NCBI GenBank assembly: GCA_032718475.1
Contig: JAUCBJ010006630.1
Span: 23,117-87,116 of the forward strand
DNA length: 64,000 nucleotides
Reading direction: 5' to 3'
Source: Nemertoderma westbladi
Taxonomy: Eukaryota; Animalia; Xenacoelomorpha
The first letter of the stretch is position 1. Every line of letters starts with the position of its first letter. The notes under the pieces were generated by a model that saw nothing but the letters and a program-made list of their open reading frames with translations, did not search any database and was not told the origin of the DNA. Both the position numbers and the translations under genes were made by a program. Of this stretch, positions 4,005 to 43,981 are shown one piece after another.

Positions 4005-4052
4005 GTTATAAAATGTAAGAACTACCCGAACTGTGACTGCCAAAGAGTAAAG

Positions 4053-6666: not shown

Positions 6667-6939
6667 ACATCAACCCCAGTACCAAACATAACACCGGTGA
6701 GGGGGGGGGGGGGGCAGGGTGACATTCCCCCACTACAAATATCCGCAGTATAGACAACCAAGAACAAACAAGTAGAGGAAACAAGTACAGTAGGGTGAGC
6801 TAGAGGAGAAAGATGGGAGAGATGAGAAGGGAACAGGGGGTGCTTTGAAATAAGTAGGGCACGGGCGTGATGACGTGTTTGATGTAAGAGCAGGGTATGT
6901 TAACTAGGGTGGGTGCCGGGCACAAGAGGTGCCGGGCAC

Positions 6940-18004: not shown

Positions 18005-19195
18005 TGTTCGCGCTTTTAAGACCTTTGGCAGTTTAACCCGCCAAATCTATATGTCTTCTAGGTTATAAATCGACTTTAGCCTATGACAAGTATTTGACAA
18101 AAATAAATCCAACATTAGCCGAAGCCAGTCTATGCGCAACCATTCACCCGCTGGATATACCCGGGAGACTGGATTCGGATGCTTTAATTTGATTGCGGTG
18201 CAGGCCTACCGTACTATTCGATTGATCGTTAATATAATTCCTGACAAATATCATTCACTTTCGGGAAATATTAGCAGTTCCTTTAGGATGTGGCGCTCTA
18301 TCTATATAAACAGAGCTATGGCTTACACTAAACACAACGGAATGGATTATAAGTTACACATAAGGCGCATTCTTTAGGAGATGCTTTGTTACGCGGACAA
18401 GCACATACAGACTATTGCACACCGCTGCACACTGAATTGCCGATAGTCACTGATTTTAATCATATATAAAGAGAATAGCAACCGACATTTGTAGGGCCTA
18501 TAAAATAGCATTCAATTCACTACAAACCACGATAATATAAGTCGCAATTGCTATATGTAACCGGTCTCTCTAACCTTAGTGTATCAAGAAGATCGGGGTT
18601 TCTGATCGTTTATCGTTATTCTCCAAATAACAATATGTAAACAACTGATACAATTAATAACAAACAGTAAAAGGTACCGTACCGTACCGTACCATACCGT
18701 ACCGTACCGTACCGTACCGTACCGTACCGTACCGTACCGTACCGTACCGTACCGGTAACAGTTATGTGTTCTTATAATTAAAGCCGTTCTAATGTTGGAA
18801 TAATTCAGAATAATCCTATAGCCGATGTTCTAGGCTCTGGAAAAACCATCACACTGAACCCTGTGAGCTGTTGCAGGTAGCTTTCAACACAAAGAGGAAA
18901 AGCTCTCATTGGCAGAGTTCCATATTCCACAGATTCCACGAATGTCTAAATGCCGAACTATTCGGGTTTTTGCAGCCCTTAGCCAACACACAGGATGAAT
19001 CACTCTGCTTGGTTGACCTTGCTCTGGTTGGTTGATCGAACAGAACAAAGAGGCCATACATACAGCAAATCAGCCAATTATCCGGTAGCTTGTATCATTT
19101 GAGTTAGGGAGTTTTTCTTTAGAGTATTTGAGCGCATTGAGGGAAACTGGATTGCGAAGCAAAAGGGCCAGTTATATCCCACAAAAGCTTTTACA
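18005..19195 (-). repeat. 3' LTR of element 1
   Basis: Plus strand TGTTCGCG...AAGCTTTTACA; direct repeat of 28178-29700. Confidence 0.92.
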
Positions 19196-19221
19196 CCGCT
19201 CCCAGAAAATGGGATTTAATT

Positions 19222-20822
19222 CTATAAAATATAAAAAATCACAGTTTCTAAAATATAAAAATACTCTAAACAGTTAGTCTTTCTTGCGTGGACGGCGTTT
19301 ACGCAGTTTTTTAAAGCTAGCAAGAGTCCTTTTCTCTTTGGGGGGAGCCACTTTACTAGGAGGGCCATAACTCCTGGGTGAAGGGTGCAATATGATTGCA
19401 TCAGAAGGTGTAGGATTATGGTCGGGGTATCCGCCGTTTCGATATGCTTCTCCTCAAGCTGATTTTCCTCCGCTCGTAGCTGGATACGTTCATCCAAAAA
19501 CTCTCGCAGAGAATAGGGTCGTCCAAGTTCGATATCTTCTCAGAGATTCTGGACTTCCCGATCGAACTGAGATAAAGTTAATTCGTTTACCGCTTGGACC
19601 CGCTGCCGCAATTTACGTTTCTCTAAACAATTGTAGGTTCATTTTCCGATCTTTTGACGAATAGTGTCCAACGCATCTCGTACAACTCTCTCCTCTGCCT
19701 CAGTGACAGGTTGTATCGGGTTAAGCCGGGACGATGGTAAGGGTGAAACGGCGATATTAAATGTCCGTGTCCCAATCCAGCTAGGTAGGATGGGCTAATA
19801 TCTAGGAAGCCCACAACCGGGGTGCCACCGACTAATTGTTCAGGCAACACCAGATCTTTGAACAGTGAGTACAGCTCGGGAGGATCCTTCATACTAATAG
19901 GATCAAGAGTCTGAGGTCTCACTAGGGAATGATGAGGTCTGATTGAGTATTCCGGAACTCTGATCATCGGTTTATTTAAGGATCGTCTGAGTCGAACGAG
20001 CGTAGGTGATAGGTCAAACAAATTTCGCTCGAAACTCCCGCAAGTATAGCGAGTAAAACCGTGTTTAGTGCAACGTCTCCGTGGATGTTTAGGTCTTTCC
20101 GTTTGTTGGTTGGGTCTAGGGCATTCATCGCAATAATACCAAAGACGCACGTCTTGTAGGGGAGACGCGAGTGATCTTTCTCCAGCTTACAATATTCCTC
20201 CATCTGTTCGAAGCTATCCGGTACAACAGGTAGCGGTCGATCGGCGGTAAGATACATCATAGTGGAATAGAGCCGTTTGAGTTCTACCATGCCTTGTATA
20301 TCTTGAGATCTATATCTTGTATATCATGTATACCTTGAGGATATCAAGTTTCTAGATTCTGTTGACTGGTAATATCGAGATATGTTTCTCTCAAGAATTC
20401 CAGATATTTTGGTGAAGTCGCTGCGTTTATCCGGCTCTTCAACATCTTCACTTTCGAGTCGGTTTCGAATAGAATTTTCGTGTTCGAGTCTCAGTTTATC
20501 GTTCCGCTTCTGCTGGGTATGATATATAAATAAAACCATTTCTCTTTTGGTGTCTATATCGTTCGTATCGTGTAGGTCGATAGGATGACCAGTAGTTAAG
20601 AAGTCCATATACGTACCATTTACGACGCGCACAGCGAGCGGTGATTTTTCTACAGTCCAACCCAGGACATTGCTCCCGGGACATTGGCGGTTAGATATAA
20701 CGACCATCGTCCTCCGTAGTAGTTGGACCAGCGTCGCCGCGTATCAAGCTATCAACAAACGCTTGTAAAGGTAGAGTATATCGCTCCCTGATACCAAGAT
20801 CATCTTCTATCAACTCAATCAT
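19222..20822 (-). pseudogene. Accessory gene of element 1: N-terminal region with CxxC...CxxH module, exonuclease absent, frameshifted
   Basis: RLYSTMMYLTADRPLPVVPDSFEQM and RLWYYCDEC...RCTKHGFTRY align with RLYHMNMYLRHEEPLPAVRDQFDGM and KLFYKCGEC...RCPAHQFLRY in ORF 55628..59092. Confidence 0.75.
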
Positions 20823-22458
20823 ATCTGCTATATAAGTTTATCCATATTATAATGAGTTTATATTTAGGCGAGCGGGCGTCGCTGCCTACCCCTCTCTGCC
20901 CCCAGACAGTGCGAGATCCTCAGCGCTGGTGTACTTTCGCCGATGTGCCTATCGCCAACGTCGTAGCTGCACAACGACTACAACAACCAGCACGAGTCAC
21001 TCCACCGTCCGTCCCAAAGGCATAGATATACTTCAGGTTCTTACTGGAGAGTTAGGGCTACTTTTACAATTGCGACTCGCTACTGTAAACACACCTTAGT
21101 AGTAACATTCACCTACAAACGCACAAATTCCACGTAACTGTCTCAAATGGTACACATTCTATCACACATTCGGGTCATTTGTCCGTTAGTGCCTTCCAGA
21201 ATGTCACGTTGTTATTATGTATCCTTGGATACTAGCGGTGTGCTATTTATTCCGTATGCTATTCAATGAGCAAGCTTTTTATTGTTCTGTTAACTCGCTT
21301 CTAATTCTAGCGTGGTTGTTGCTATGGTGACATTATGGAAAGCTAGCGGTAGAATTAGGGTAATTCTCATGCATACAGATCTGGGATGCTATTTAATAGT
21401 AAGTCTTTAATGGTCAATATCATCTTTATATATGATTTTATGAATTTTATCGGCTATTGACTCTATATTGGAGATTCTCGCACACTAATACACTTAATAG
21501 GTGAATCTCCGCTCCCATGATCTATTAATTAATGGAATTTTGGGAATATTAAAAATTGTATAAAATAACAATTTATCAAATTCATTAAAAGATGAATTTA
21601 AATTTATTCCCGTAATTTTATTATTTAATATTAAATAGACACAATTTTATTCCAGAGCAAGTCTGGGGACTGGGATCCTTGATTCTAGGGATTTGTCCTT
21701 TTAAGAGTATCGGTAAGTGCTACGATATCTTAATCGACTAGAATTTTAAAGGATCTGAAATTTGACAGATTTTATAAATATTAATAATTAATATTTAGGA
21801 TGGGCACAAGTTTATTCCAGAACAAGTCTGGGGACGTTAACCACTGATTCTAGAAATTTGTCTTTCAAGTATATCGGTGGGTGCCGCGATATCTTAATCG
21901 ACTAGAATTGCAGATGGTCAAAGGGTTTAACAGATTTATTTTGCGTTTTACGCTACTGTTAAAGGGACATCACGCTACTATATGTATTATTTAATATACG
22001 GTATGAGAGCAATATCGCACGAAGCAATGTCAGTGTGAAGAGGCAAGTCGTTTCCAAGGTCTACCCAGAGCTTGGTTTAGCCGAGACACGAGGATCTGAA
22101 CTTTGCATTCCTAATACTCTGCCTACCAATAATACTTGAATATAGTAGGAGCTTTATTGTACTTTAATAAGTACAAACATTTCATCTTACTGTAGTTACG
22201 TATTTGTAATGTAATACGGACAGTAAGGAAAGAGAAAAAAGAATTATTTCTCGCCGTCGCACTAAATATATAATATATAAGTAATTAAGTAATAAACGCG
22301 AATATATATTGCACTAATCTACTAAATAATCGCTAAATAACATTCCACTAAATAAAATTAAATAAAACGATTATAATAAAATTACATAATAATACATACA
22401 TAAATATAAAATAATAAGAATGTAAAATAATATGGTCACACACCCACTCCATATGTTG

Positions 22459-25400
22459 TTATGTTATGGAGTCCCTAGATATTTGTCGGATTAGGGAAGT
22501 GGTCGTGGGAAGAGTATCTTGCCTTCCATAGTTTCCGGACAGTTTTCGGTCTCTTTCCAGTAAACATAAACGACCAGCTGGGCGATTGAGTTGTTGTGTT
22601 ACTTTCTCCGCTCCCTTGGCCTGTCTAATCTCAGCCGGGTTAAGGTGGGGAGGCCATTCATCTTCTTTACTTAGGAAGTCGGGTTCACCTAACCAGTCTG
22701 GAGTATCTGTCAGTTCTTGAGGAGTTGCTCCTCTGGAGGCGATGTCGGCTAGATTAATCGTCTCGGGGCAATGTCTCCATTGATCTACATTGGAGTTGAT
22801 GTCGTCATTATCTGAGGAGTATGATCTTCCCTCAGTTGGATCGTCTAACACACTGCTCTCATCTTCCCATTCTCTTACTTGATATACCTGATCTTTCAGT
22901 AATCTTTCCATGAGAGTTCTACGGGAAGGGCCAGTAAAGTACCAACCCACTCTAGTTCTTCCCGCATAAGCTTGTAGTGGTTGCGGTTGAGCAGGCCGTT
23001 TCTCCAATGTCTCGAGCACTTCATGCGCATTTTGACCGATGAGTATTTGGACTCCAGGGAAATCGGTGTTGAATCCAGGTATTTCAAGCTGCGGGGTGAA
23101 GTCGTCCTCATCCCAGTTATAAGGTTCCACTTGGCTGGTAGCGAAGTTCTTTATCGCTACCATTTTCACTGACCTTATGCTGTGTTCTCCTAGTTCATCC
23201 TGGGGGGTGGACAACGCGCCTACATAATAATCCGCTATTACGGTAGATTTCCAAACCTGCATAATTCCTGACATGTTTAACTTAGTTCGGAACTTGGGTT
23301 GTCCAGCAAAGATGTCTTTGGCTAGATATTTGTCGATGAATGTTCCTGTGCTACAGGAGTCAAGGAGGGCATTCACTATATAACTCCTTTTAGGTCCGTG
23401 GACCCTTAACTGTACTACAGGAAATTCTCGGATTCCTACATTGGAAGTTGGTGCTTTCCAAGATGGTTGTCGATCAGAAGTAGTTAGGGGGAGCTCACTG
23501 TCGGTTTCCTTCTCATACGTAAGTGCTCGATACACTGCAGTATTTATTAAGTAACAGGATTCGTTTTCGTCTGAGAATTCGTCCATATAGAATCCTTCCA
23601 TTTCAGAACTTTGGTCGGAGAATTCGTCCGTATAGAATCCTTCTATCTCAGAACTTTGGTCAGTGTCGTTCACATCACTGAATTGGACATGTAGTTCGGA
23701 CTCACTTACCTGACTCGGGTTGTTTCTTTCGAATTTGGTGTGCAACAAGATATGATGTTTCGCGCCGCACTTAGCACACCTCGCGTCGGAGTAACAGGTT
23801 CGCCGTTGGTGTCCTCGTCTGAGGCAATTATAACACAACCGCTTATCCCACATGACTTCACGTCTATCTTTTAATGATTTCTTTAGGAATTCATCACACA
23901 CATTTAAACGGTGGGGCCCGTCGCACAACACACATTTGGGCTTGATGTTACTTACTTTAACATGTGCTGTATGGTGCGCACTCGTTCTTTCCTCGGGCTT
24001 TCTTACATGAATTCTCTTAGGAGATGTAGGAGGAGTTTTTCTTACCTGTTCTCTCCTGTCATTGGTTCGAGACTTGAATTTACTTACGTCCTTTGGGGTT
24101 TTATTGTCATAGTAAGATCTTTCAGTGTCTTTCCCGCTGTCTTCCTCTTGAGAAGCCTGGCTTTCGCCGTCGTCTGTATAACACACTGGTATTACTTTTC
24201 TCCTAGAAATGGGTTTCTCACTTACCTTATTTTCCGGTGTCTTCTCTCTGGACTGCTTTAGGAGCTGTAATTTTACCTCTCCATCTAAGAATGACATGAG
24301 ATCAGCCATGGTAGGGTCTCGTCGTTGTTGTTCCATCATATATAACACTTTCTTGTCCCAGTGTGTACCTACTCTACCCTTGGGCAAAGTAGATGCTAAG
24401 GCTCCTACAACCATAGAATTCTGGTATTCATGAGACTTACCTAACCAATCTAGTTGTCTACAGATCTCCTGAATCTCGTCGGAAAACTCTATAATCCCGC
24501 TGCTAAGAAACTTTCGGGGCGCCATTAATTTTGCATACAAATACCTAGCTATGTTTGTCCTATTACCATACCTGATGTTTAGTGTATCCCAAACTTGTCT
24601 TAATCCATCTGGATGTCCAATAAACTTTAACGCCATTAACTTGGGAGGTCCTTCCAAACACTCGATGAGGAATCTAAGTTTCTCTCCGTTAGATAGTACA
24701 GAGTTCTGTATGTTATCTTTGTAATATTCATTAAAAGGTAACCATTTCATCTCATCTCCATTGAACTTGACGATCTCTCCACCTTTACCGCTTGACGGGC
24801 TTTGGTTCTAGCCATTTGACGCGTAAAACTTTCTTGGGCCATCGTATTATTTAATATCGAATTATCGGTATATAAATTTCTCGGATTATGATCAGGTCTA
24901 TATGGAATATCATTGTCAACAGGTTTATAATTACCCTTAATAGGGTTTACTATAGGAGTTTCTACTTCACTAGCAGTATAGATACGTGTAGGCTCCACAC
25001 CTTGTGCATAAAATACTTCAGACCTAACAGGTTGACACATTGTTACAGAGGGTGGTGGTATACCCTTTTGTAAATTTACTAATTTATCGCGTTCTGACGC
25101 AATACTCTGCTGCACTTCTTGCAACGCTAACCTACACTCTCTTACTGCTCCCTTTAACTGCTGAACAGTCCCTTCCAACTCCCGGACCTGCTGGGAGGAA
25201 CATTTACAATATTCCCTCAGCTGCCCGAGCAGGAGACCCATCTCCCGTCGTCCCTCAGCTACCCACTCGACCGCCGAAGCGGGAGTCGCCAACGTAGTAG
25301 CGGGCAAGCGAGAGACGACGGGCGATAAATTCTTGATATCTCGCTCAGCGTTCAGGGTGGGTTCGGACTCGGGAACAGTCCTACTGGGCACAGGTAGTTT

Positions 25401-25915
25401 CGTGCTGTGCAAAGGGAATTTAGAGGTAGGTTCTGGGAGTACAGGTGTCTCTATCACCGAAGGGGTGGCTTCGAGAACAGGCCTACTTATTTCAGGCTCA
25501 TCTACTATAGTAGGGAGTCTTTCTATTGTAATAATTTGGTCTGTGGGTTCTGTACTACCTAAGTCTGTGCTAGCTAGTCTCACCGCAGGAGGCAAGTTAG
25601 GTAACTTGGACAGTGTGGCATTCTTCTACGCCTGCTTGAACGAGATTTATTACCTCTACTTTCGGGATCTCTTATATCACCTTCATCGGAGGAGGCAAAT
25701 CCCTGTCTTCTGGTTTGTCTCCTCAAGTCTGCTTCTGCCACTGCCTCTGCCGCTTTTCTTTCTGCTTCTGCCGCTGCTACTTTTCTTTCCGCTTCTGCAG
25801 CTGCCGCTGCTGCTGCTTTTCTGTCTACTATCCTTTCAAGACACTGTCCAAGTTGAAGACTCATTCTAACACCTTTCAAAAGACTATCTGACAGTGCCCG
25901 TTTTGTGTCAGACAT
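22459..25915 (-). pseudogene. Bel/Pao gag-protease fused in frame to short RNase H and integrase C-terminal remnants
   Basis: Bel/Pao gag core (LSNGEKLRFL...L..RYG); three zinc knuckles CVLC..H....C, CYNC...GH....C, CAKC...HH..LH; protease ALLDSCS; WRHC..TINLAD and LNRP..RL remnants; frameshifts near 24750 and 25590. Confidence 0.88.
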
Positions 25916-27249
25916 ATTTGATTTGTACAGTCGAATGCCTACTGCTAGATTACAGTTAAAGCAAGTCTAGTAATTCAGTATCAACTGTTAGCCTAGTAAT
26001 TAATTACCAATACTGCTACTCAGTGTAGCATGATATATATAATATATTAGAATACCGGTATGCTTATAGTATATATATAAGTATTATTACAGACTAGGTT
26101 TGTCACAGAATACCGGTATATAATTTTAGCACAAATATATAAATATATAATAGGCCTATCGTGAATACCGGTATACAGCTTACACTTATAGTATATATAA
26201 GTATAATTATGGACTAGAATTAATTACAGAATACCGGTATAATTTCAGCCTAAATTTATTGAAATAAATATAATAAGCCTATTGTAAATACCGGTATGTC
26301 AATTATTTTAAAATAATTGAATTTCTGAATTTTAGGGGTTACTTGGTTACTTTACTTTACTTGATTACCGTTATTTAAGCAGTAGTCCAACTGACATTAA
26401 GACCTAATTGATGTATGGCAGGCCTACTATTTTATAAATTGGTTTGAGTTGATTTATAATATATATACCCGTATGAGGGGTTTTTGTTACAATATTGAAA
26501 TATATGTTATTATTTCTGGGAAGTAATCACTACACAAAAGCTGTGCGCTCTCAGTGAAGTGCTACTTGTTGGACACTAAAACAAATAATTATACTTTCCT
26601 AAGTTACTTATCTACGAATTACGTACAATACGGGTGAGATTACAATCTCTAAATAAACACAAAAAATTACAAATACACAAATACAAATTTTCTAGGGTAA
26701 TTTTACAGGAAGTCTACAAACCAGCCTAACAAAGGGTTAGAAATCTGGTTATTACAAACGGACAGGATACTACGGTATTTGAAAATAACAAGCCGTAGTA
26801 AATATATTGCATTGTCCAGATAGGAAAATACCACCGTCTGACGACTTATAGCCGTATCGCTATAAGTACTACGTTATGTATCACGGAGTGTCCCTACCTG
26901 GAAGTTAATTACCGCGGTCTACCAGAACCAACGTGCCTATTAACCACTTTACAACACAAATATACTGCCCACACACTAATTACCTTCGGAAAGCACTGTA
27001 CACTAAACCCTAAATTAGGTACAAGTACTTGTACAACAAATAACCAGCAGTTAGAAATACTTGAACAGCTAAAAGAACCACGGCATCTGCTGGAGTGACC
27101 GGTGCACAAAATCACCAGTCTTTACCTACGCCAAGCAGCCCTGATGTAGTACCGGGGTTAATTTAACTATAACGGTATGTATAACAAGCACAATTACTGT
27201 AGGAATAAACTTGGGGATATGAAAGTTGCAAATAATCGCATAAACTCTG

Positions 27250-27830
27250 AATAATAAATATTACGCTACCCGTACAAACTACTCAAACAAAATACAAACC
27301 AAACGCTGGCAGACTACTATCAAGCCTAAATAAATTACAGTATGTGCAGATTCCGAAATGGTTAGTTAGTATGCGTTCTAACCGAGTAGTACGACTTATT
27401 CTTTCGAGGGGGATTTACCTTACAGCTCTGGCTGCCCCTACTTTCCTAACCGGCACTTTATCGGACATACACTCTACACACACCACAATCTCTTCAGACC
27501 TAACAACAGCCAGACAACAATCTAGCCTACAAATTATCTGAATAAGAAATATTACGGTACCTGTACAGACTACACAAACAAAGTACAGACCAAACGCTGG
27601 TAGACTACTATCAAGCCTAAATAAACTACAGGACATGCAGACTCCGAAATGGTTAGTTAGTATGCGTTCTAACCGAGTAGTATGACTTATTCTTTCGAGG
27701 GGGATTTACCTTACAGCTCTGGCTGCCCCTACTTTCCTAACCGGCACTTTATCGGACATACACTCTACATGCACTGCAATCCATTCAGACCTAACAACAA
27801 TCAGACAACAGTTTAGCCTACAAATTATCT
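27250..27830. repeat. About 290-bp tandem duplication in the 5' leader of element 1
   Basis: Two copies of ...CCGAAATGGTTAGTTAGTATGCGTTCTAACC...; single copy in element 2 (about 42440-42730). Confidence 0.8.
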
Positions 27831-28177
27831 GTACGATCTGAGCAGACTTACACGCCTTCTGCTCAATATTAGCCTACTAGTAAATAAAACTGACAGAAAT
27901 AAGTAAACCATGCAAAGGAATAAGGGGTGATCAATCCCTAATCCCCTAACAGCCTACAATATACAATATATCACAATTGAAATAATACTGATGTACCTAT
28001 ACTGCTGTAAGTGCCGGTTCCGGTGGTTAGGTAGTTAGGCCTACAGGTTACCGGTCGACCGGTACTTCAGCTTTATTGCTTACGGCAATAAAGAAGCAAT
28101 AACCGTTATTGTTCTTACCAGAACAATAGTAAACTGTATTTATTGCCTACACTGCAATCAGAATTAATAACTGTTAC

Positions 28178-29700
28178 TGTTTGCGCTTTTAAGACCTTTG
28201 GCAGTTTAACCCGCCAAATCTATATGTCTTCTAGGTTATAAATCGACTTTAGCCTATGACAAGTATTTGACACAAATAAATCCAACATTAGCCGAAGCCA
28301 GTCTATGCGCGACCATTCACCCGCTGGATATACCCGGATGCTTCGGATGATTCGGATGATTCGGATGCTTTAATTTGTTTGCGGTGCAGGCCTACCGTAC
28401 TATTCGATTGATCGTTAATATAATTCCTGACAAATATCATTCACTTTCGGGAAATATTAGCAGTTCCTTTAGGACGTTGCGCTCTATCTATATAAACAGA
28501 GCTATGGCTTACACTAAACACAACGGAATGGATTATAAGTTACACATAAGGCGCATTCTTTAGGTGATGCTTTGTTACGCGGACAAGCACATACAGACTA
28601 TTGCACACCGCTGCACACTGAATTGCCGATAGTCACTGATTTTAATCATATATAAAGAGAATAGCAACCGACATTTGTAGGGCCTATAAAATAGCATTTA
28701 ATTCACTACAAACCACGATAATATAAGTCGCAATTGCTATATGTAACCGGTCTCTCTAACCTTAGTGTATCAAGAAGATCGGGGTTTCTGATCGTTTATC
28801 GTTATTCTCCAAATAACAATATGTAAACAACTGATACAATTAATAACAAACAGTAAATAGCAGTAAATAATGTGCAATACAGCAGTAGGTACCGTACCGT
28901 ACCGTACCGTACCGTACCGTACCGTACCGTACCGTACCGTACCGTACCGTACCGTACCGTACCGTACCGTACCGTACCGTACCGTACCGTACCGTACCGT
29001 ACCGTACCGTACCGTACCGTACCGTACCGTACCGTACCGTACCGTACCGTACCGTACCGTACCGTACCGTACCGTACCGTACCGTACCGTAACGTACCGT
29101 ACCGTACCGTACCGTACCGTACCGTACCGTACCGTACCGTACCGTACCGTACCGTACCGTACCGTACCGTACTGTACCGTACCGTACTGTACCGTACCGT
29201 ACCGTACCGTACCGTACCGTACCGTACCGTACCGTACCGTACCGTACCGTACCGTACCGGTAACAGTTATGTGTTCTTATAATTAAAGCCGTTCTAATGT
29301 TGGAATAATTCAGAATAATTCCATAGCCGATGTTCTAGGCTCTGGAAAAACCAACACACTGAACCCTGTGAGCTGTTGCAGGTAGCTTTCAACACAAAGA
29401 GGAAAAGCTCTCATTGGCAGAGTTCCATATTCCACAGATTCCACGAATGTCTAAATGCCGAACTATTCGGGTTTTTGCAGCCCTTAGACAACACACAGGA
29501 TGAATCACTCTGATTGGTTGACCTTGCTCTGGTTGGTTGATCGAACAGAACAAAGAGGCCATACGTACAGCAAATCAGCCAATCAGCCGGTAGCTTGCAT
29601 CATTTGAGTTAGGGAGTTTTTCTTTAGAGTATTTGAGCGCATTGAGGGAAACTGGATTGCGAAGCAAAAGGGCCAGTTATATCCCACAAAAGCTTTTACA
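28178..29700 (-). repeat. 5' LTR of element 1
   Basis: Direct repeat of 18005-19195 with an expanded microsatellite. Confidence 0.92.
28888..29259. repeat. (TACCG)n microsatellite, about 74 units
   Basis: Direct observation; the homologous array at 18674-18754 has about 16 units. Confidence 0.95.
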
Positions 29701-30211: not shown

Positions 30212-31403
30212 TGTTCGCGCTTTCAGACCTTTAGCAGTTTAATCTGCCAATTTTAGGTGTCCTCTTGTTTATACGTCGACTTTAGCCTACAATAATTATT
30301 TGGTACACATGAAGTAACATTAGCCGAAACCAGTCTATGCGCGACCAATCACCCACTGTTAAGGGAGACTGAATTCAGGCGCTTTGAAGTTATTGCGGTG
30401 CAGACCTACTGTATTATTTGATTGATCGTTACTATATAATCTCTGACAATATTATTCACTTCCGGGGAGATATTAACAGTTCCTTTAGGACGTGGCGCTT
30501 TAAGTATAAAACAGAGTTATGACTTACACTAAACACAACGGGGTGACTACTGATTCTTGCAAATATCGCATTCTTTAGGAGATGCTTTGTTATCAGTCAA
30601 ACTGCTTCACACGACTTCACACTAATGCACACTGATCTGCCGACCGTCACTGAATTCGATCATATATAAGGAGGATAGCAACTGACACATGTAGGGATTA
30701 TGAAATAGCATTTAATTCACATAAAACCACTATAATGTAAGTCGCAATTGCTACAGGTATCCGGTCCCTCTTACCTTCAGTAATCAAGAAGATTGGAGGT
30801 TTTATGATTATTTATCGTTATTCTCCAAATATAACAACATATCCATCCATATATAATAATTAAGGACAGACAGTAAACAGAAGTAAAATAATGCAATTAA
30901 CAATCAGTATGTTACGTAGTGCATTGAGTTAATGCCACCAGTATGCCGTATGATCAGCAATGAGTCAGGTAAGATAACAGCTTTGCACTCCTATAATCAA
31001 AGCTATCTAATGTTGGCCAAAGTCTGAAACTTCCACAACAGAAGTACAGAAGATTTCCAAGCCGGTTCTTCTGGCCCAGAAAGGTAAAAAAAACCAAGAC
31101 TGACATGCCTATTACGGTTTACATAGGCTCTTGTCACACATAAAATGAAAATCGCTCTGATTGGCTGAGCCAAACAAAGAACAAAGAAAAGTTCCACGTT
31201 GGCTGTAAATCAGCTGATAGATTGCGTCATCTGAGTTCCCGTCTTTTAGAATATTAAGCGCATTGCGGAGAAAATGGCTTGTTATGTCCACTAAAGCACA
31301 CATGCAGACATAGCGGGTAAAAATGGCTTGTTTTGTCCGCTAAAACACCTACACGGTATATTGCATAGAAAAATGGCTTGTTATATCCGCAAAAGCTTTT
31401 ACA
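30212..31403 (-). repeat. 3' LTR of element 2
   Basis: Direct repeat of 42975-43981, which lacks about 185 bp present here. Confidence 0.92.
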
Positions 31404-31481
31404 CCACTCCCAGAAAATGGGATTTAATTATATAAAATATAAAAAATCACAGTTTCTAAAATATAAAAATACTCTAAACAG

Positions 31482-34461
31482 TTAGTCCTTCTTACTTAAA
31501 CGGTGTTTACGCAGTTTTTTGAGGCTAGCAAGAGTCTTTTTCTCTTTGGGCCGAGCCACTTTACGAGGAGGGCTATAACTCCTAGGTGAGGGGTGCAATA
31601 CAATTGCATCAGAAGGTTTGGGGTTACGGTCGGTGTATCCGCCGGTCGAGGTACCCGGTTGATCGATATCAACCTCTGAGGAACGAGGTCGAACAACCTT
31701 TAGAGCGCGTTTCAAGACAGCAGCTCTTACTGGTCCCTGACGAGTCGTCTGCACGAGAGCGGTAGGCGGACCATGAGTAGTAAGGAACTTCCTAGGTTTG
31801 ATGGTTCTTTCTAACTCGTGTTCTCGGGCTCTATATTCATAGGCTCATCTATGAACTTCCTGTAGTTCTGGATGCGAGTTGATGAACAAGTCACCATATT
31901 CCGGATTTTGACGGATGAAGTTGATCAAGTTATAGGAATTAAGATCATTAAGATTGATGTTCCTGAGATACTTGCGAACAAATTTGGTTGAAATATTCTC
32001 GCCAACACGCTTCATTAGTTTGTAACTCGGTGTGCGAGATTTATGCTCAATGGAAGCAAATAGATACGGATGAAATATATAAACTCCTTCATAGGCACGT
32101 CCAGGGTAATATCGATGACGTGACTCGCAGTGGAGATCCGCGTTCGCTTCCCAGGCTCGAATGTAGCACAGGGTAATCATTTCATCTACACTCTCTAGAT
32201 CTTGATTGAAAGGGCAATCAAAACTGGCGTGTCCTTTAAACTGGTACTGATGGCATTGAGTCATAAATTGAGGGCAGACTGCAAAGATGTGTAAGTTATT
32301 GAGTCTACAATACGCACAATACACCTTCATTGTAGGTTGGTCTTGGAAGTAGGAGCAGGGTGTGCTGGAGTCCACTGGGGTAAAATGGTCTCGTGATGAG
32401 CACAATCGGTAACTTTTCCGAGAAACATAATTGGCATGCCGATAATCGTATGCGGTGAGACATTGTGGACCTTGATACCATTCCAGGACGTGGTCGTTGT
32501 CACTGCTCCGTGGCGCTGTGGGCTGCATCTCCTCGGATTCTAAGAATATTGGTTTGTCTTCCAATTGTATAGCTGAGGTAGGTGTAGCTGTCTCCTCAAG
32601 CGAACCCACTGTTTGAACTTCCATGATAGAATAACCTGTGGGAATTCGGGGTCTTTGTATAACAGAGGAATGTAAGTTCTGTATACAAACGTCCTTGAAA
32701 ATAGCGAAGCCAGCACTGTCTAACTTCTCAGCAGCTGAGTCTCTTAGGCTGAGCTTAGTTAGAGCGCGGTCCTTAAACTGACTATCAACGTTACGGAACG
32801 GAGTCAGAAAGCGCCTAAAGCATTCGAATCGGATGAATTTATTGTGTTCATCTAGCTTGGCGAGTTTGGTTCCGAGTATCAAGGGATGGGCACGTATAGT
32901 ACGACTGCACACATCAGCTAGCCAACCGGGAAGTGCGGTGTTCTCGAGGATAGTGTGCATAGCTAATGAGGGACGAAGGGGAACACTGATAAAGCTATAC
33001 ACAACGCCAGGTGCGGTCAATGGTCCGTCGAAGTATAATCGAGAATAATGATCTCCATATACTTGTTGATAGTTGATAGGGTTTCCGACTTTGAAATTCC
33101 ATCCGTATTCTTGGAAGGCAAGATGTCCGATGGAGGTTTGTTGTACTTTATTAATGCCGCTGGGTGTATTGGCATACATAGTTCGGAAAAAACCTCGGCC
33201 TTCTGCCCAGGGAGCAATCAGCTGGGTGTCTACGAAAGGATATGGGATATTCTCCATGTTGCTGTTGTATGCCTAATATGTCTGCCATTGATGGTAGAGA
33301 GCAAGGGAAGACCTATGTCGTATTCAGCAATATTCAGAAATACGATCTTAGTAGGAGGATTCAACATTCGAAGACCATCTCCAAATGAATTTATCCCCGA
33401 TCATTAATGGAGGTGAACAACCAGATTTATGACACATAATGGTACCAGTTGTTCACTGACTGTCTATGTGTCCTTTCAGTCCTTGTATCACGGTCGTGGA
33501 CTTGAGGAAAATAGGGGTGGTTGATTATCTAATCAACAACAAGAGGAGTAGGAGTTGATACTATGAATATTAACACAATGGTACATGGACAGGAGGTGTG
33601 GACACCAATATAAGCATCCAAATAAACCGTAAGGGATGAGGAGGTTTAGTAGGAGGCGGTACGATCAATACCACGATACCACTATGATTGGTCGATCATC
33701 TACCAAAAGCTCCAAGCGCGTTGGGTAGAGAAGATGGGAAGAAGAGGGTTTCTCTATCAATGTCTTGTATCCTTGATAGCGATAGATAGAGGGAGAATAG
33801 TAGTAGGGAGAAAGAAGGATATGTGGGTAATATCTATAAGAGACCACAATGGACATGTTTCCCTTTTACGTCCTTACTCATTCTTACTCTTTGATTGTGA
33901 CACTAATCACAATAATTGCAGGAAGAGGATGAAATAAGAGGAAATTACAGCCTCCCGAAGGAGACCGCCCGCGAGCACCCGCGCCCCGGGAAAAACTATT
34001 CACATTATGGACCCTGGACATAAACGTATGAATTTTCTCCAGCTGGTTCTCCTCTACTTGTCTTTACAAGCATTCTTCCACATTCTATCTTTCGAGAGGT
34101 TTCGAATAGAACTTTCGTGTTCAATTCTCAGTTTATCATTCCGACTCCACTGGGTATGATATTTAAATAGAACCATTTCCCTTTCGGTGTCTACATCGTC
34201 TGTATCGTGTAAATCGATAGGATGACCAGTAGTTAAGAAGTCCATATACGTACCATTACGATGTGTATAGCGAGCTGTGAATTTTCTATAGTCCAATTCA
34301 CGCGTGAGTTGTTCTTTTGACATTGGCGGTTCGATATAATGGCCATCATCCTCCGTAATGGGTTGACTGGCGTTGCCGCGTATTAAACTATCAACAAACG
34401 CCTACAATGGTAGGGTATATGGTTCCCTGATACCAAGATCATCTTCTATCAACTCAGTCAT
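31482..34461 (-). pseudogene. Accessory gene of element 2 (exonuclease-like C-terminal half and degenerate CCHC knuckles), fragmented
   Basis: ORF 31845..33257 aligns along its length with ORF 55628..59092 (PFVDT, Y.W.FK, HPL..G, RFLTPF, WE..AD.H, VR.Y.R..N); N-terminal pieces at 34054-34461. Confidence 0.8.
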
Positions 34462-36136
34462 AGTTGCCGTATGAGTTTATCAATATTATAATCAATAATA
34501 TTTAGGCTAGCGGTCTTCGCTGCCTACCCCTCAAGGCCCCCGGACAGCGCAAGATCCTCAGCGCTGATGTACTGTTGTCGCTGTGCCTCTCGCCAACGTA
34601 GTAGCTACACAACGACAACAATAGCACGCGCGAGTCACTCCACTGTCCGTCCCAAGGGCTTAGATTTACTTCAGGTTCTTGCTACAGAGGTAGGGCTACT
34701 TTCACAACTGCAACCCGCTACTGTAAACACATTTTAGTAGTAACATTCACCTATAAACGCACAAATTCCACACAACTGTCACAAATTGTACACATTCGGG
34801 CCATTTGTCCGTTAGTCAAGTGCCTTCCAGAATGCCACGTTATTATTATGTATCCCTGGATAATAGCAGTGTGCTATTTATTCCGTATGCTATTCAAAGG
34901 GGCAAGCTTTCTATTGTTCTTTTAACTCGCTTCTAATTCTAGCGTGGTTGTTGCTATGGTGACATTATGGAAAGCTAGCAGTAGAATTAGGGTAATTCTC
35001 ATGCATACAGATCTGGGATGCTATTTAATAGTAATTCTTTAATTGTCAATATTCCCCTTTATACATGATTTTATGAATTTTATCGGCTATTGACTATATA
35101 TTGGAGATTCTTGCACACTAGTATACTTAATAGGGTAAATCTCCGCTCCCATGATCTATTAATTAATGGAATTTTGGGAATGTTATAAATTGTATAAAAT
35201 GGATATGAATTTAAATTTATTCCCGTAAATTTTATTATTTATCTTTAAAATAGACACAATTTTATTCCAGAACAGGTCTGGGACTAGGAACCTTAATTCT
35301 AGGAAATTCGTCCTTTTAAGAGTATCGGTAAGTGCTACGATATCTTAATTGACTAGAATTTTAAAGGATCTGAATTTTAACAGATTTGGATTTATTGATT
35401 TTCTAGAGTTAACTTGTAAGTATTTACTCTATTATATTTGTTTTGACAAATTTTTAAATATTAAATAATTAATATTTAAGATAGGCACCGAATTATTCCA
35501 GAACTTGTCTGGGGACGTTAACCACTGATTCTAAAATTTTGTCTTTCAAGTATATCGGTAGGTGCCGCGATATCTTAATCGACTAGAATTACAGATGGTC
35601 AAAGGGTTTAACAGATTTATTTTGCGTTTTACGCTACTGTTAAAGGGACATCACGCTACTATATGTATTATTTAAGATACGGAATGAGAGCAATATCGCA
35701 AGAAGCAATGTCAGTGAGAAGAGGCAAGTCATTTCCAAGGTCTACCCAGAGCTTGGTTTAGCCGAGACACAAGGATCTGAACTTTGCATTCCTAATACTC
35801 TACTTACCAATAATACTTGAATATAGTAGGATCTTTATTGTACTTTAATAAGTACGGACATTTCATCTTACCGTAGTCACGTATTTATAATATGATACGG
35901 ACAGTAAGGAAAGAGAAAATAATGATTTCTCGCGTTACACTAAATATATAATAAGTAATTAAGTAATAAACACGAATATATATTGCACTAGTCTACTAAA
36001 TAATCGCTAAAATAACCTTCTACTAAATAAAATTAAAGAAAACGATTATAATAAAATTACATAATAATACATTCATAAATATAAAAATAATAAAAAATTA
36101 TAAAATAATATAGTCACACACCCACTCCAGACGCGG

Positions 36137-39100
36137 TTACGTTGGGGAGTCCCTAGATGTTTGTTGGATTAGGGAGATGGTTGTGGGAAGAGTATCTTGC
36201 CTTCCATAGTTTCCGGATAGTTCTCTGTCTCTTTCCAGTAAACCTAAACGACCAACTGGGCGATTGAGCTGCTGCGTTTCGAATAGAATTCCAGGTTTCT
36301 TAAAGTTACGTCGCATGACGACGAGTTCTACTGATCGCACTAAACCATCATTGGATACATGAGTCTCGATGATACGACCTGTCTGCCACCGCTTATGTGG
36401 AAGATCTGATTCCACAATAAGGACCATGTCTCCGGCGCTGACGTTTTCTTGCTGCGCAAACCACTTGGTTCGAAGTTGTAGCATAGGCAGATAATGTTTT
36501 TGAAATGGTCAGCGAAATGACGGGATAATAACTGCATAAGTTGCCAAGTTTGTCGGCAGTATTCGTCTCTGTCTGTGATTTCCGATTGTGGGAGCATGGC
36601 TACAGGTTTCTTCAGTAGGAAGTGCGCGGGTGTAAGCGCTTCTAGGGAGTCGGGACTTGATGAGACTGGCATAAGCGGTCTCTCGATAAGATAGGCGGCA
36701 ATTTCCTCCATTAACGTCCACAAAAGTTCGTCGGTGAGATAAGCGCGGCAAGGCACTATAAAGTGAAATGCGGTCTTCACACTCCTTATTAATCTCTCCC
36801 AACTTCCTCCCCACCAAGGGGTGTCGGCGGCGTTAAAGGTCCAGCTAGATGATGTTACCCTTAGCTGATCGTCCACCTGTCTTTGGTTCCAATATCTAAT
36901 GTAAGCTTTGATCTCATTATTGGCACCAATGAAGTTCGTTCCCTTATCAGATCTCATCGTGTTGCTAGTTCCAAAGCGAGCAATCTGTCGGCGTAAACTC
37001 AGTATGAAGCTGTTGATAGATAGATCGTTCACCATATCTAGATGTATCGCTCTACAAGTCATACAGACAAAGATGACACACCATCGCTTGACTATAGTTC
37101 TAGCACGATATACTTCAATAGGGCCAAATAAATCCATACCGGTATTAGTAAAGGGTGGTTCATAGAAGCTTACGCGTTCCCTAGGTAATTCTGCCTCGCG
37201 CTGTGTTAAAGGCCTTCTGAATGCTTTCCTACAGGGTATACAGTTCCTAAGAACTTGGTTCAGAGCTCTACAGGGTTTTTGAAAATAATAGCGAGTTCGA
37301 ATTTCGCTAAGAACTCGTTCTCTACCAGCATGGTAAAGCTTACTGTGAACATCTACAATCATCTTGATTTGTATTTCAAGATTTCTAATGAGTAGGGGAA
37401 ACTTAGTGTCAAAGGATAATGGAGCATTAGTTAGTCTTCCTCCAACGCGTATTAACCCATCTATCATTGTGCTAGAGAAACGATCCCTTAAGCGCATCTG
37501 TGGATTTCTCAACAACAGGAAATACTTATCGGAATCCTCATAGTATTGCAGGAGTCTCAGTATATGCTTATTTGTTTCTTCATGCTCTTGTGGTAACTGA
37601 TCCTCTCCTTCAGAAATCTGTCTGATATATTGTATTTGGGAAGATCTTTAACAACATGGACCTGTGCAGATGTCAGTGGAGCGGTATCACTAGCAATCTT
37701 CGTCCTGGAGTAATGATGGTGGAAGCATCGCTTCAAATACACGACGGCCTTACAAAGCCGAGCTATAGTGATTTATCACTCTCTGCAGGAGAGGTGAGAG
37801 TCCCTGCGAGACGTCTGGTGTTCCAGATTTCCAGTCTCTCTCTCTGTTGTGGAGATTCACAACAGATTTATTTGTGGCGGGTGAGTTTAGATCCACAGCG
37901 TCGTCTCCAGAAGTGTGTAGTACAGATAGATCTATCACTGGTTTGAATAACTTTGATTTACTCGTCCGGGTTTTAGGTTTCAATTTCTCCGCTCCCTTGG
38001 CTTGTCTAATCTCAGACGTGGTAAGATGAGGAGGCCATTCATCTTCTTCTTTACTTAGGAAGTCGGGTCCACCTAACCAGTCTGGAGTATCTATCAGTTC
38101 TTGAGGAGTTGCTCCTCTGGAGGCGATGTCAGCTGGATTAATCGTCCCATGGCAATGTCTCCATTGATCTACATTAGTGCGACTAAGTATAATGGCTACT
38201 CTGTTGGTAACAAAGACGCTGAACTGACAGACTTCATTGGTTATATACTCCAAAACGAGTAAAGCATCAGTCCAATAGACAGTTTTCTCCAGTGGATAGT
38301 CGATCTGTTTTGTTACATTCCAGCCGATGGCTGTAGCATATAGAGCCGCTTTTAACTCCGCTCGAGGAACTCGTAATTTGTTGTTTATCAAGGCCTTAGA
38401 GGTAACCAAGGCAACTTTAATTCCATCCGGAGATTTAACTCTCAGGTAGGCTACTATACCTATTCCCATATCGCTGGCGTCTCCAGACACATGGAGTTGA
38501 TAGGAATATGTGGGGAGAACGTGACCAAAATATGAACGGGAAATCGTAAAGTTCTCGATGGATGGTAGAGAATCTTCCCATTTCATCCACTTCTTTAGTA
38601 GTTCTCCCTTAAGTGGATTGTCCCACGAGTGGTTTTCAAGCCACATTTGTTGTACTAAACTCCGAGCAACCAATATAACGGGGCTAATAAATCCCAATGG
38701 ATCGAAATAAGTGCTCAGGATACTTAGACAAATCCGTTTAGTTCGAACTGGATTATCTCGCCTTTTTAGCTGGAAAAACAGGATATCTCTCTCCGTGTCC
38801 CATTTCAAACCAAGCGTCTTGGTTTCTGGAAGATTGTCCTTGATAAGGTCCAGATCTTTAACACCTCAATCTTCCGCCGGGATCGATTCCAGAAACTCAC
38901 GGGAGTTACTTGTGAATTTGGTTAGTCGAAATCCACCGCGTTTCAAGCACTCTACCGTTCCCTTGGCAACATCAATGGCTTCTTCCACTGATGGGAGGGA
39001 CTTTAAATTGTCGTCCATGTAGATATCCCGTTTGATGTTGTCGATAACCGCTTTTAAGAAGGCGTCCCGGTTGTCATCCACAGTAGTACGCACCACTGAG

Positions 39101-40372
39101 CAAGCGTTCGAGGGGCTTGAGATGATCCCGAAAGCCTGGATGGTCATCCAGTACTCCACCAGTTTTTGGTCGAGGTCTCCTTCAGGCCACCACAGAAATC
39201 GTAGGCTGTCTCGATCCCTATCCAGCGCCTTAACTTGTAAGAACATACCTTCTATATCCGAGGCAAAAGCGATAGAATATTGCCGGAATCTTAAGAGTAT
39301 TCCCAACAAGGATTGGAGTAAGTTGGGTCCCGGCAACAACTCAGAATTAAGGGATTGGCCCATGTAAAGGGCGGAGCCGTCAAATACTACCCGGACTTCG
39401 TTGGGTTTACCGGGTTTGGGAACGTAATGATGTGTTAGATAATACGTTCTCTCAGTTACGGTTGTTTCTTCTGGTACTCGCTCCACGTATCCCTTATCGA
39501 TGAATTTCTTCAGCTATGTCTTATACATCTCTTTAGCTGAAGCATTGGCCGTAAGACGCCGATGTAGTTGCGCAATTCTCTTCTCCGCCAAGGGTCTGTT
39601 ATTAATAAAGTTTTCGTTCTCGCCGTCTGAACGGAAGACCCCTCTCATACCTACCTTGGTCTTTAAGAAAACGTGTAGTCGTTTCCTGGATCTGCTTGAC
39701 TCTTTCCTCCTCGACAGATAGAGCCTTGTCATAGGAATTAGGCTCTACAGCTTCTTGCGTAAAGAATCGTACGGCGTGTTCATCGTGAAGTTTATCATTG
39801 TATCGATCTATCACCGCATTTAGCTCGTCATTGTAGTCGAATTGTCCGCCATGATTGACAAGATGGCACAGTTGCATTTGGTTTCTCCAAACTTCACTCT
39901 CGGTGAGGAGGTTGATTGTATTTTCCTCGTCAAATATTTGGGTAATATCGTCGTTATCTGAGGAGTATGGTGTTCCCTCAGGTATGGTCTCTCCCTCACT
40001 GATTTCTTCTTCCCATTCACTCACCTGATGGATGTGGTTGGTAGGTACTCTTTCCATGAGTGTTCTACGGGAAGGTCCAGTGAAGTACCAACCTACTCTC
40101 TTTCTTCCAGCATAGGTTTGCAATGGTTGCGGTCGAGCAGGCCGTTTTTCTAATGTCTCAAGCGCCTCATGTGCATTTTGACCGATTAATATTTGCACCC
40201 CTGGGTAGTCGGTGTTGAATCTAGGGATATTATGTTGCTGGGTAAAATAGTCTTCATCCTAGTTGTAAGGTTCCACTTGGCTGGTAGCAAAGTTCTTTAT
40301 CACCACCATTTTTACTGACCTTATGCTATGTTCTCCTAGTTCATCCTGGGGAGTGGACAACGCTCCTACATA
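36137..40372 (-). pseudogene. Bel/Pao pol (protease C-terminus, RT, RNase H, integrase), frameshifted
   Basis: VRVVFDGSA, SDIEGMFLQV, YMDD, GDASD, WTDA, NPAD, H...H...CxxC, DLFGP, SDKGTNF, WERL. Confidence 0.93.
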
Positions 40373-41400
40373 GTGGGTTCTGTACTACCTGAATCAGCAC
40401 TAGCTAGTTGCCTTCTCACAGTTGGGGGCAAATTAGGCAATTTCTGATGGTGGGGCGTTCTTCTACGTTCGCTGGGACGAAATCTATTTTCTCCGCCTTC
40501 AGGATCTGTTGTATCGCCCTTATCAGATGATGTAAATCCCTGTCTCTTGGGAGTAGATTGACTCATCATCTGCATCTGACTAGCTGTTCTCTGCTTATTC
40601 ATGTAGTCTTGCTTCTCTTGAAGATTTTCCAACTCTAGTTGGGTTGTCTCTTCAGATGCCCTCCGTTCTGCTTCTGCCACTGCCTCTGCCGCTTTTCTTT
40701 CCGCTTCTGCTGCTGCTACTTTTCTTGCCACTTCTGCCTCTGCCGCTGCCGCTTTTCTTTCCGCTTCTACTGCTGCATCTGCCGCTTTTCTTTCAGCCTC
40801 TGCCGCTGCCGCTGCCGCTGCCGCTGCAGCTGCCGCCTTTCTTTCCGCTTCTGCCGCTGCCGCTGCTGCTGCCTTTCGGTTTTCTATGCGTTTTTTCTTT
40901 AATTGTTCTTCCTGTTCTCTAGCGATGAGTATGCTTTCATCAAATTTAGCCTGTTCAGCGGCTAACATTTCGGCATATAACGAGTCCAACACAAATTTGG
41001 CTCCCTCACTCTTAGGGTGAAGTCCAGCAAGCCGTCTCCTTTACTCTTTGTCTCCTATAAATCGCTGATAGTCCGACAGATAGATGTCAATAGCATCCTT
41101 CTTCTGAGGTTTTTCGGTCGTAACTCGCTTTCCACTTGAGAAAAGGCAGCGTCTGTTGATTCTCCTTGGGTCGAGTGCTCAGTTAGCTGAATTTTCCATT
41201 GGGCCATTCCTTGGACTTTAAGACTCACTCGTTGGAACCAAGTCTTTACAGCGACTTGCAATGACGTGTCTTGGCTTCTCTTCGGGGCTTCCTCAAAGGC
41301 TGAAAGGATTAGTCTGATCTGTAGAATTTGTTCTCTTCTTGATAAAGCAGCTCTCCCTGCTCTTGAGGTCCGTGAGGTTGTTGAAACAGGTCACACCGGG
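40373..41400 (-). pseudogene. Bel/Pao gag N-terminal coiled-coil fragment of element 2
   Basis: AAAAEAERK repeats homologous to 25580..25915; ends at the STEPT deletion junction. Confidence 0.7.
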
Positions 41401-42974
41401 CTTGAACCAACTTTTAGTTCGAAAAATTTTAACAGTCAAAATGAATGTTTCACGTGATTCATATCAACATTCTAACTTAAAAAAACCAAATTTAAAAAAA
41501 AACGGTTACTTTTTGAAATAATTGAAAAAAGCCGTTTTTGACCAAAAATAGCACTTTGACACCAAATTTTCAAATATGAAAATGCAAAAGATAAAATTGA
41601 ACGGTGAAAAAGAATATCTTACCTGGTTAATATGGTCATTCTAACTACAAAAAATGAAATTAAAAAATTAACGGTCGATTAATTTTTTCAAAAATTTAAA
41701 AAATAACTCTTGACCAAAAATACCATATTTAGCACCAAATTTTCAAATATGAAAATCAATAATTACAATCATATAGGTATTTCTCTTTTTCCACAAAGGT
41801 TTTCATGTAAGGCGAAAATAATGGTAATATTTTCCAGAAGAATTGGTGATATGGTATGCTATTTTTCAGTGGGTGTTACTTGTTGGACACTAAAACAAAT
41901 AATTCTACTTTACTAAGTTACTTATTACTACAAGTTACTTACATATAGTGTGAGATTACAATCTCTAAATAAACAAAAACAAGTGACACGTAGAAATTTT
42001 TAGGGTAATTTTACAGGAAATCTTCAAACCAGCCTAACAAGGAGTTTATAAGTACTACGTTATGTAGCCGGAGTGTCCTTACCTAGAAGTTAATTACCAC
42101 AGCCAACCAGAGCTAACGTGCCTATTAACCACTTTACAACACAAATATACCGCCTACAAACTAAATTACCTTTGGAAAGTAGTGTACTCTAAACCCTAGA
42201 TTAGGTACAAATACTTATACAACAAATAACCAGCAGTTAAATATACTTGAACAGCTAAAAGAACCACGGTATCTGCTGGAGTGACTAGAGCATAAAATCA
42301 ACGGTCTTTACCTACGCCAAGCAGCCCTAATGTAGTACCAGGGTTAATTTAAATATAACGGTATGTATAACAAGCACAATTACTGTAGGAATAAACTTGG
42401 GGAAGTTTGAAGGTTGCGAATACTCGCATAGACTCTGAATAATAAATATTACGCTACCCGTGCAGACTATACAAACAAAATACAGACCAAACACTAGCAG
42501 ACTACTGTCAAGCCCAAACAAACTACAGTATATGCAGACTCCGAAATGGTTAGTTAGTATGCGTTCTAACCAAGTAGTACGACTTATTCTTTTGGGGGGG
42601 ATTAACCTTACAACACTGGATGCCCCCACGTTCCTAACTAGTACTTTATCGGACATTCAATCTACACACACTGCAATCCCTTCAAACCTAACAACAGCCA
42701 GACAACAATCCAGCCTATAAATTATTTGCACAATTTGAGCGGGCTTACACTCCTTCTGCTCAATATTTTGCTTACAGATAAATAAAACTGACAGAAATAA
42801 ATAAGCTCTAAAAGAAACTAAACAGCCTACCACTATACAAACATATCAATCGAAATAATACTAGTACCGGTAAGTACCGGTTCGGGTAGTTGGGCAGTTA
42901 GGCCTACAGCTTACCATTCGACCGGTACCTTGGGCTTTATTGCCTACGGTGCAATAAAGAAGAAAAGCTGTCAT

Positions 42975-43981
42975 TGTTCGCGCTTTCAGACCTTTAGCAG
43001 TTTAACCTGCCAATTTTAGGTTTCCTCTTGTTTATACGTCGACTTTAGCCTACAATAATTAATGGTACACATTAAGTAACATTAGCCGAAACCAGTCTAT
43101 GCGCGACCATTCACCCACTGTTAAGGGAGACTGAATTCAGGCGCTTTGAAGTTATTGCGGTGCAGACCTACTGTATTATTCGATTGATCGTTACTATATA
43201 ATCTCTGACAATATTATTCACTTTCGGGGAGATATTAACAGTTCCTTTAGGACGTGGCGCTTTAAGTATAAAACAGAGTTATGACTTACACTAAACACAA
43301 CGGGGTGACTTCTGATTTTCGCAAATATTGCATTCTTTAGGAGATGCTTTGTTATCAGTCACACTGCTTCACACAACTTCACACTAATGCACACTGATCT
43401 GCCTACCATCACTGAATTTGATCATATATAAGGAGGATTGCAACTGACACATGTAGGGATTATGAAATAGCATTTAATTCACACAAAACCACTATAATGT
43501 AAGTCGCAATTGCTACAGGTAACTGGTCCCTCTTACCTTCAGTAATCAAGAAGATTGGGGGTTTTATGTTTATTTATCGTTATTCTCCAAATATAACAAC
43601 ATATCCATCCATATATAATAATTAAGAACAGACAGTAAACAGAAGTAAAATAATGCGGTGAACAATCAGTATGTTACGTAGTGCATTGAGTTAATGCCGC
43701 CAGTATGCCGTATGATCAGCAATGAGTCAGGTAAGATAGACTGGCTTTGCACTCCTATAATCAAAGCAGTTCCACGTTGGCAGTAAATCAGCTGATAGAT
43801 TGCGTCATCTGAGTTCCGGTCTTTTAGAGTATTAAGCGCATTGCGGAGAAAATGGCTTGTTATGTCCGCTAAAGCACACATGCAGACATAGCAGGTAAAA
43901 ATGGCTTGTTATGTCCGCTAAAACACCTACACGGTATATTGTGTAGAAAAATGGCTTGTTATATCCGCAAAAGCTTTTACA
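42975..43981 (-). repeat. 5' LTR of element 2
   Basis: Direct repeat of 30212-31403. Confidence 0.92.

Follow-up and report, generated by a model that had tools for sequence, protein, structure and literature searches.

In Tf1, reverse transcription is primed by bases 1-11 of the element's own RNA, which are released by an RNase H cut (accessible sections of PMC7175516), and Tf1-like self-priming has been proposed for Tj1 of S. japonicus (accessible sections of PMC4600332). A preliminary description of the DNA analysed here had presented this mode as one known from chromoviruses, which holds for the Tf1/sushi group and is too narrow as a general statement, as the accessible sections of PMC6317226 predict self-priming both in Tcn1 and in the TAR lineage of plant Ty1/copia elements (Houba, Osr-1). 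Belpaoviridae are described by the ICTV as having LTRs of 0.2-1.2 kb and an 18-nt primer-binding site (PBS) that accepts tRNA-Arg or tRNA-Gly, with a poorly understood replication that starts from a host tRNA (PMC8742986). Primers are not mentioned in the accessible sections of the Bel/Pao surveys PMC3118150, PMC554778, and PMC6238403, nor do those of PMC3601003, PMC6934838, PMC8220671, PMC13524379, and PMC3286476 contain anything on Bel/Pao self-priming. The literature searched held no report of Bel/Pao self-priming or of a primer made by splicing, and a prior mention is possible in subscription papers, Repbase, or GyDB. Here we describe two Bel/Pao elements, E1 and E2, from a 64-kb window of Nemertoderma westbladi DNA (the whole stretch that was analysed). 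Judged from their sequences, Bel/Pao elements of this type quite probably prime minus-strand DNA with RNA derived from their own LTRs rather than with a host tRNA, and such self-priming is best read as a variant of a known mechanism, predicted in a superfamily described as tRNA-primed.

E1 (18005..29700, minus strand) is a non-autonomous element flanked by a 5-bp target site duplication (TSD), in which the gag and protease region is present and RT and integrase are largely deleted, and E2 (30212..43981, minus strand) is a decayed element that likewise has a 5-bp TSD. Pfam identified DUF1759 in E1, in a gag(-protease) open reading frame (ORF) at 22459..24807 (minus strand), and Peptidase_A17, Integrase_H2C2, and DUF5641 in both element 3 of the window and E2, where the RT-RNase H-integrase region (36233..39603, minus strand) has interrupted frames; these domains place E1, E2, and element 3 in Bel/Pao. 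A Ty3/gypsy chromovirus Pol of the Tf1/sushi kind was ruled out, as the domains of E1 and E2 are of Bel/Pao type. Searches by tblastn with Bel/Pao polyproteins supported the order PR-RT-RH-IN, with E1 lacking most of pol, and the best protein matches had 34-42% identity, the named ones among the matches listed coming from molluscs, corals, echinoderms, a barnacle, a tunicate, and fish. The 5' LTR of E1 (28178..29700, minus strand) measures 1523 bp and its 3' LTR (18005..19195, minus strand) 1191 bp, the latter directly preceded by a polypurine tract (PPT; 19196..19203, minus strand) with a spacer of 0. In E2 the 5' LTR (42975..43981, minus strand) has been reduced to 1007 bp by a 186-bp deletion, and the 1192-bp 3' LTR (30212..31403, minus strand) again has its PPT directly upstream with a spacer of 0. 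LTR pairs in the window share 96-98% identity, and both elements have LTRs with TG..CA ends, a TSD, and a PPT, as Belpaoviridae do. E1 and E2 thus resemble the Belpaoviridae of the ICTV in LTRs, gag-pol order, PPT, Pfam domains, and animal host, and differ from them in an extra ORF after pol and in the absence of a tRNA-type PBS: an 18-nt PBS for the 3' end of tRNA-Arg or tRNA-Gly was absent from both, and, as had been claimed for this locus, neither has a TGG-type PBS, the first TGG occurring at +58 in E1 and +59 in E2 and none within 57 nt. As both elements are defective, an intact relative would have had to supply their proteins. The 3' ends of element 0 (1-1260, plus strand) and element 3 (54904 downward, minus strand) share the PPT of E1, and their 5' ends lie beyond the window.

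The preliminary description rested its case on pairing between each PBS and the LTR, and recomputation reproduced both helices at the coordinates it had reported. The non-TGG PBS of E1 (28167..28177, minus strand) abuts the LTR end, and its bases 28177-28167 agree without a mismatch with the reverse complement of the putative self-primer, LTR positions 431-441, which lies at 29270-29260 in the 5' LTR and 18765-18755 in the 3' LTR (both minus strand). The non-TGG PBS of E2 (42974-42964, minus strand) pairs 11/11, with one G-U, with LTR positions 420-430 of the 3' LTR (30984-30974, minus strand), and the corresponding site in its 5' LTR, near 43736-43748, is altered, as the description had cautioned. 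Helix positions 1, 8, and 10 differ between E1 and E2 on both sides, again as claimed, and position 3 on one side only; when the partners were swapped between the elements, Watson-Crick pairs dropped to 8 and 7. Both primer sites are preceded by the same conserved block. The four bases after the 5' LTR of E2 (42974-42971) are identical to the four after its 3' LTR (30211-30208, minus strand; the TSD), which could be chance or conversion. As bases 1-4 of the PBS and of the TSD therefore agree, the G-U position of E2 could reflect decay or conversion from the 3' flank.

With two related copies and an 11-mer that is almost self-complementary, it had to be considered that the match in E1 and E2 arose by chance or by local inverted duplication, aided by the near-palindromic, AT-rich character of the site. 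E2 fits such an origin when taken alone, as by Watson-Crick pairs its match is 8 nt and was equalled by 39/400 random 30-mers, which is not significant. In E1, at least 11 nt were reached in 12/3000 dinucleotide shuffles of the LTR (offsets 0-3; p about 0.004) and by 3/400 random internal 30-mers. This result, the three two-sided changes, and a 3'-end register, zero offset, and array position that recur in distant relatives (below) leave us giving chance hardly any credence. Further copies of the E1/E2 families with both site and PBS were sought with the exact pattern of the common LTR end, which had 0 matches in metagenome contigs, and with a protein scan of viral contigs, which yielded no relative; neither search supplied another copy. 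Contigs of one sequencing run of uncertain kind (X1) covered E2 with many differences and barely covered the LTR region of the primer site. As in Tf1/Tf2, Tj1, Tf1/sushi, and Tcn1 (accessible sections of PMC7175516 and PMC4600332), a tRNA PBS is lacking and a PBS of about 11 nt, adjoining U5, complements the element's own LTR in primer orientation. Unlike those Ty3/gypsy chromoviruses, E1 and E2 belong to Bel/Pao and have a loop to the PBS of about 750 nt or more, and whereas the primer of Tf1 has been shown to be the RNase H-cut 5' end of the RNA, that of E1 and E2 is putative. They share with the plant copia TAR lineage (Houba, Osr-1) a self-priming that is predicted from sequence outside the chromoviruses, and differ from it as animal Bel/Pao elements (accessible sections of PMC6317226).

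Relatives were collected by querying with the RT-RNase H of element 3 aligned to 30 of the 120 homologues listed. Out of 559 confirmed metagenome loci the best 80, from 48 families, were retained; self-comparison of these loci yielded an LTR end and PBS in 18. When only contiguous pairing was allowed, the 18 loci gave one clear match, and in five the best partial match lay immediately after a pyrimidine tract and AG. Pairing across a splice junction explains most of the other loci of this test. For the splice test, L055 (repeat in coding sequence, not LTR) and L006 and L045 (of the families of L007 and L036) were dropped, leaving 15 loci, in which any GT could be joined to any AG 40 nt or more away; only Watson-Crick pairs counted, at PBS offsets 0-4. 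This revealed that in 11/15 loci the PBS pairs over 10-16 nt across a predicted GT-AG junction in the locus's own LTR, each match being reached by 0-6/400 random internal 30-mers. The donors picked were GTAAG or GTGAG in 9/11, although any GT was admissible. L033 has a contiguous 10-nt pairing; L036, a sister copy of L030, is degenerate and fails the pairing test; and L043 and L059 have a TGG-type PBS and no pairing to their own LTR. The LTR end of L023 was shifted by 26 nt after the match had been seen, because the contig ends inside the 3' LTR. When 15 loci were scanned more widely, without a null distribution, four family results recurred, L028 and L058 joined them, and nothing convincing emerged in nine loci, including four families with a 5' LTR start (L012, L024, L047, and L073). 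The predicted LTR introns that bring a PBS-complementary sequence together at the exon junction measure 71-351 nt (L007, L008, L019, L020, L023, L028, L030, L037, L041, L042, L054, L058, and L064). Comparing all elements with one another, own PBS and own LTR paired over at least 10 nt in 16/19 elements, against 10/342 foreign pairs, of which 2/10 were between sister families and 6/10 against the long LTRs of E1 or E2, a point in favour of chance in the latter two. The own LTR was strictly the best partner in 13/19 elements, L033, X (an unrelated element of the window, below), and E2 being among those where it was not. The relatives make self-priming considerably more credible, as most testable ones pair, usually only once the predicted intron is removed. 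E1 and E2 represent the uninterrupted form of the putative primer and most relatives its predicted splice-made form, which is unlike Tf1 and is not mentioned for the copia TAR lineage in the accessible sections of PMC6317226.

The LTRs of E1 and E2 themselves share a donor-like and an acceptor-like motif (18574-18328 in E1 and 30774-30529 in E2, minus strand), 247 and 246 nt apart, on the downstream side of the putative primer; one base after the acceptor comes another donor-like motif. This pair is a possible LTR intron, whose removal would shorten the loop to the PBS. A splice-made primer in E1 and E2 was rejected as unneeded and not significant (15/400 and 40/400).

The position of the pairing is as regular as its presence. 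In all 17/17 elements, E1 and E2 included, the putative primer ends in AC or AT, and the base after it is C in 15/17; the helix is invariably in primer orientation, with 0-4 nt between its end and that of the LTR. As both primers of reverse transcription define the ends of the cDNA, PBS and PPT spacers should match. A PBS offset of 0 was accompanied by a PPT spacer of 0 in 6/6 elements (E1, E2, and X included) and in 0/13 others (Fisher p 4e-5), and under a stricter PPT rule in 5/6 offset-0 elements (p 5e-4), an agreement that is expected if the PBS site sets the cDNA end. Tandem arrays begin with the base that follows the primer in 7/17 elements, including E1, L023, L030, L042, L054, and L028; this test was designed after examples had been seen, making its p value optimistic. 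More generally, the register, offset, and array counts are not fully independent, and their p values assume more independence than related elements provide. In E1, a 371-bp array of a 5-nt unit (28889..29259, minus strand) begins at this base in the 5' LTR, and the primer copy of the 3' LTR (18755..18765, minus strand) is followed by an 81-bp array copy at 18754-18674. The six core bases of the E1/E2 site, which may resemble an Asn anticodon loop, would suit a different account, in which the primer at the PBS is half of a host tRNA, or another small RNA, and the match to the LTR arises as a by-product. Half-tRNA priming does exist in Ty1/copia lineages (accessible sections of PMC6317226). We nevertheless consider this account very improbable, as the PBS varies by family and follows the element's own LTR, often across a splice junction, which a single host RNA cannot do. 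No tRNA genes were found in the window or in the relative loci.

These observations suggest a route by which E1 and E2 would prime their own reverse transcription. Starting from the pairing at the LTR end, the RNA would begin at or upstream of the 11-mer, which would fold onto the PBS, probably aided by nucleocapsid. By analogy with Tf1, a cut just 3' of the 11-mer, after AC/AU and before C and most likely made by the element's own RNase H, would provide the 3'-OH. RT would then copy U5 and R as far as the cut and jump to the 3' R, and misaligned jumps there would explain why tandem arrays start at that base. In most relatives the sequence complementary to the PBS exists only across the predicted junction, and the primer would form once the LTR intron has been spliced out. 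TATA positions fit this route less well. A TATA-like hexamer close to the 11-mer, flagged in the preliminary description, lies 11 nt upstream of it in E1 and E2 and likewise in L037, and if it is the promoter, RNA would start downstream of the 11-mer, which would then be missing from the 5' RNA. In 1/17 elements (L020, 29-31 nt upstream) the TATA is spaced as expected for RNA that starts at the primer, and in L007, L028, and L054 a TATA 88-135 nt upstream would make the primer internal. In an equilibrium fold of the E1 5' region the primer-PBS helix had a probability of at most 0.03, the meaning of which is limited by the expanded array and a loop of more than 1 kb, and in X the value was 0.8 under one assumed start and 0.01 under another. 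The primer-PBS duplexes are weak (-7.7 to -17.9 kcal/mol). A U5 hairpin was predicted in E1 (28197..28218, minus strand, 20 nt before the LTR end) and in E2 (42994-43013, minus strand), and no U5-leader stem is common to both.

The inconsistent TATA spacing and the disfavoured helix in the E1 fold would suit a pairing that is real and selected, with a structural or regulatory role in dimerisation, packaging, or a splicing check, in elements that use another primer. We consider this unlikely, given the constant primer orientation of a helix whose end is 0-4 nt from that of the LTR, an offset that matches the PPT spacer, and a single 3'-end register, and given that E1 and E2 have no TGG within 57 nt and the TGG-type relatives have no pairing. 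Self-priming is preferred on the strength of the 11/11 match in E1, the two-sided changes, the pairing in relatives, the register, the offset/PPT agreement, the arrays, element X, and the Tf1 precedent; counted against it are the TATA spacing, the E1 fold, the weak duplexes, E2 taken alone and the damage to its 5' copy, the families L012, L024, L047, and L073, and the rows of L033 and X in the comparison of own and foreign partners.

The distribution of the two forms was examined on an unrooted tree of 17 RT-RNase H rows, which had no outgroup and left out L054 for its short alignment. E2 and element 3 formed one long supported branch, L033 grouped with the spliced L037 and L042, and the TGG types L043 and L059 fell together. 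A single clade of spliced types was rejected (p-AU 1e-6), as was a clade of the contiguous types E2 and L033 (p-AU 3e-5), and at least two switches between the predicted spliced and contiguous forms are needed. A 3' LTR copy that was spliced and then reverse transcribed could give rise to an intron-less LTR. The broader proposition, which we regard as evenly balanced, is that a large aquatic branch of Bel/Pao does without tRNA priming, that in most of its families the spliceosome joins LTR exons into the primer so that splicing gates reverse transcription, that the forms in the window are intron-less, and that tRNA priming is in the minority. The splice-made primer of the relatives is the more surprising part when set beside the uninterrupted form, and splicing that builds the primer would link reverse transcription to RNA processing in a new way. 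If true, self-priming would occur in all three superfamilies of LTR retrotransposons, which bears on whether hairpin priming or self-priming preceded tRNA priming (accessible sections of PMC3601003). Self-primed elements would also evade the tRNA fragments that silence through the PBS, and would be overlooked or misread by annotation software for which a tRNA PBS is obligatory.

Self-priming had been placed in the clade that carries an exonuclease gene. Element 3 has an intact extra ORF of 1163 aa after integrase (55628-59119, minus strand) with cysteine-rich motifs, and homologous pieces are present in E1 and in E2, where the part at 31845..33272 (minus strand) has 24% identity to it. In an Atlas comparison of the element 3 ORF, the 3'-5' exonuclease family (PF01612) was the third match, with a score of 0.91 and 157/256 features, and a single-sequence fold had a pLDDT of 34; a 3'-5' exonuclease is a lead only for the product. 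The extra ORF was found in 0/80 relative loci, the best-ranking metagenome loci retained above, yet most testable loci pair, so that the pairing signature is much wider than the exonuclease-like gene and, as far as these sequences indicate, does not need it. Self-priming in Bel/Pao is supported at the sequence level by the relatives, the register, the offset, the arrays, and the comparison of own with foreign partners, and its tie to an exonuclease-carrying clade is not supported by these loci.

The window contains a third element with the pairing signature. Element X (3431..9901, plus strand) is an LTR element with LTRs of 574 and 579 bp and a 5-bp TSD, whose putative self-primer in the 5' LTR (3803..3814, plus strand) pairs over 12 nt, with one G-U, with a non-TGG PBS at 4005-4016. 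Searches with Pfam and by tblastn with Bel/Pao polyproteins detected neither a domain nor a Bel/Pao match in X, which is unrelated to E1 and E2, with its class unassigned. An LTR fragment related to X lies at 44592-44938 (minus strand). Elsewhere in the window, RVT_1 fragments at 15521-17190 (minus strand) and 46359-47542 (plus strand) resemble pieces of non-LTR retrotransposons, accompanied by a 580-bp stretch shared at 94% identity between 14840-15419 and 47002-47579. A leucine-rich-repeat ORF occupies 10413-11207 (minus strand), and an imperfect long inverted repeat at 52117-52665 is foldback- or MITE-like.
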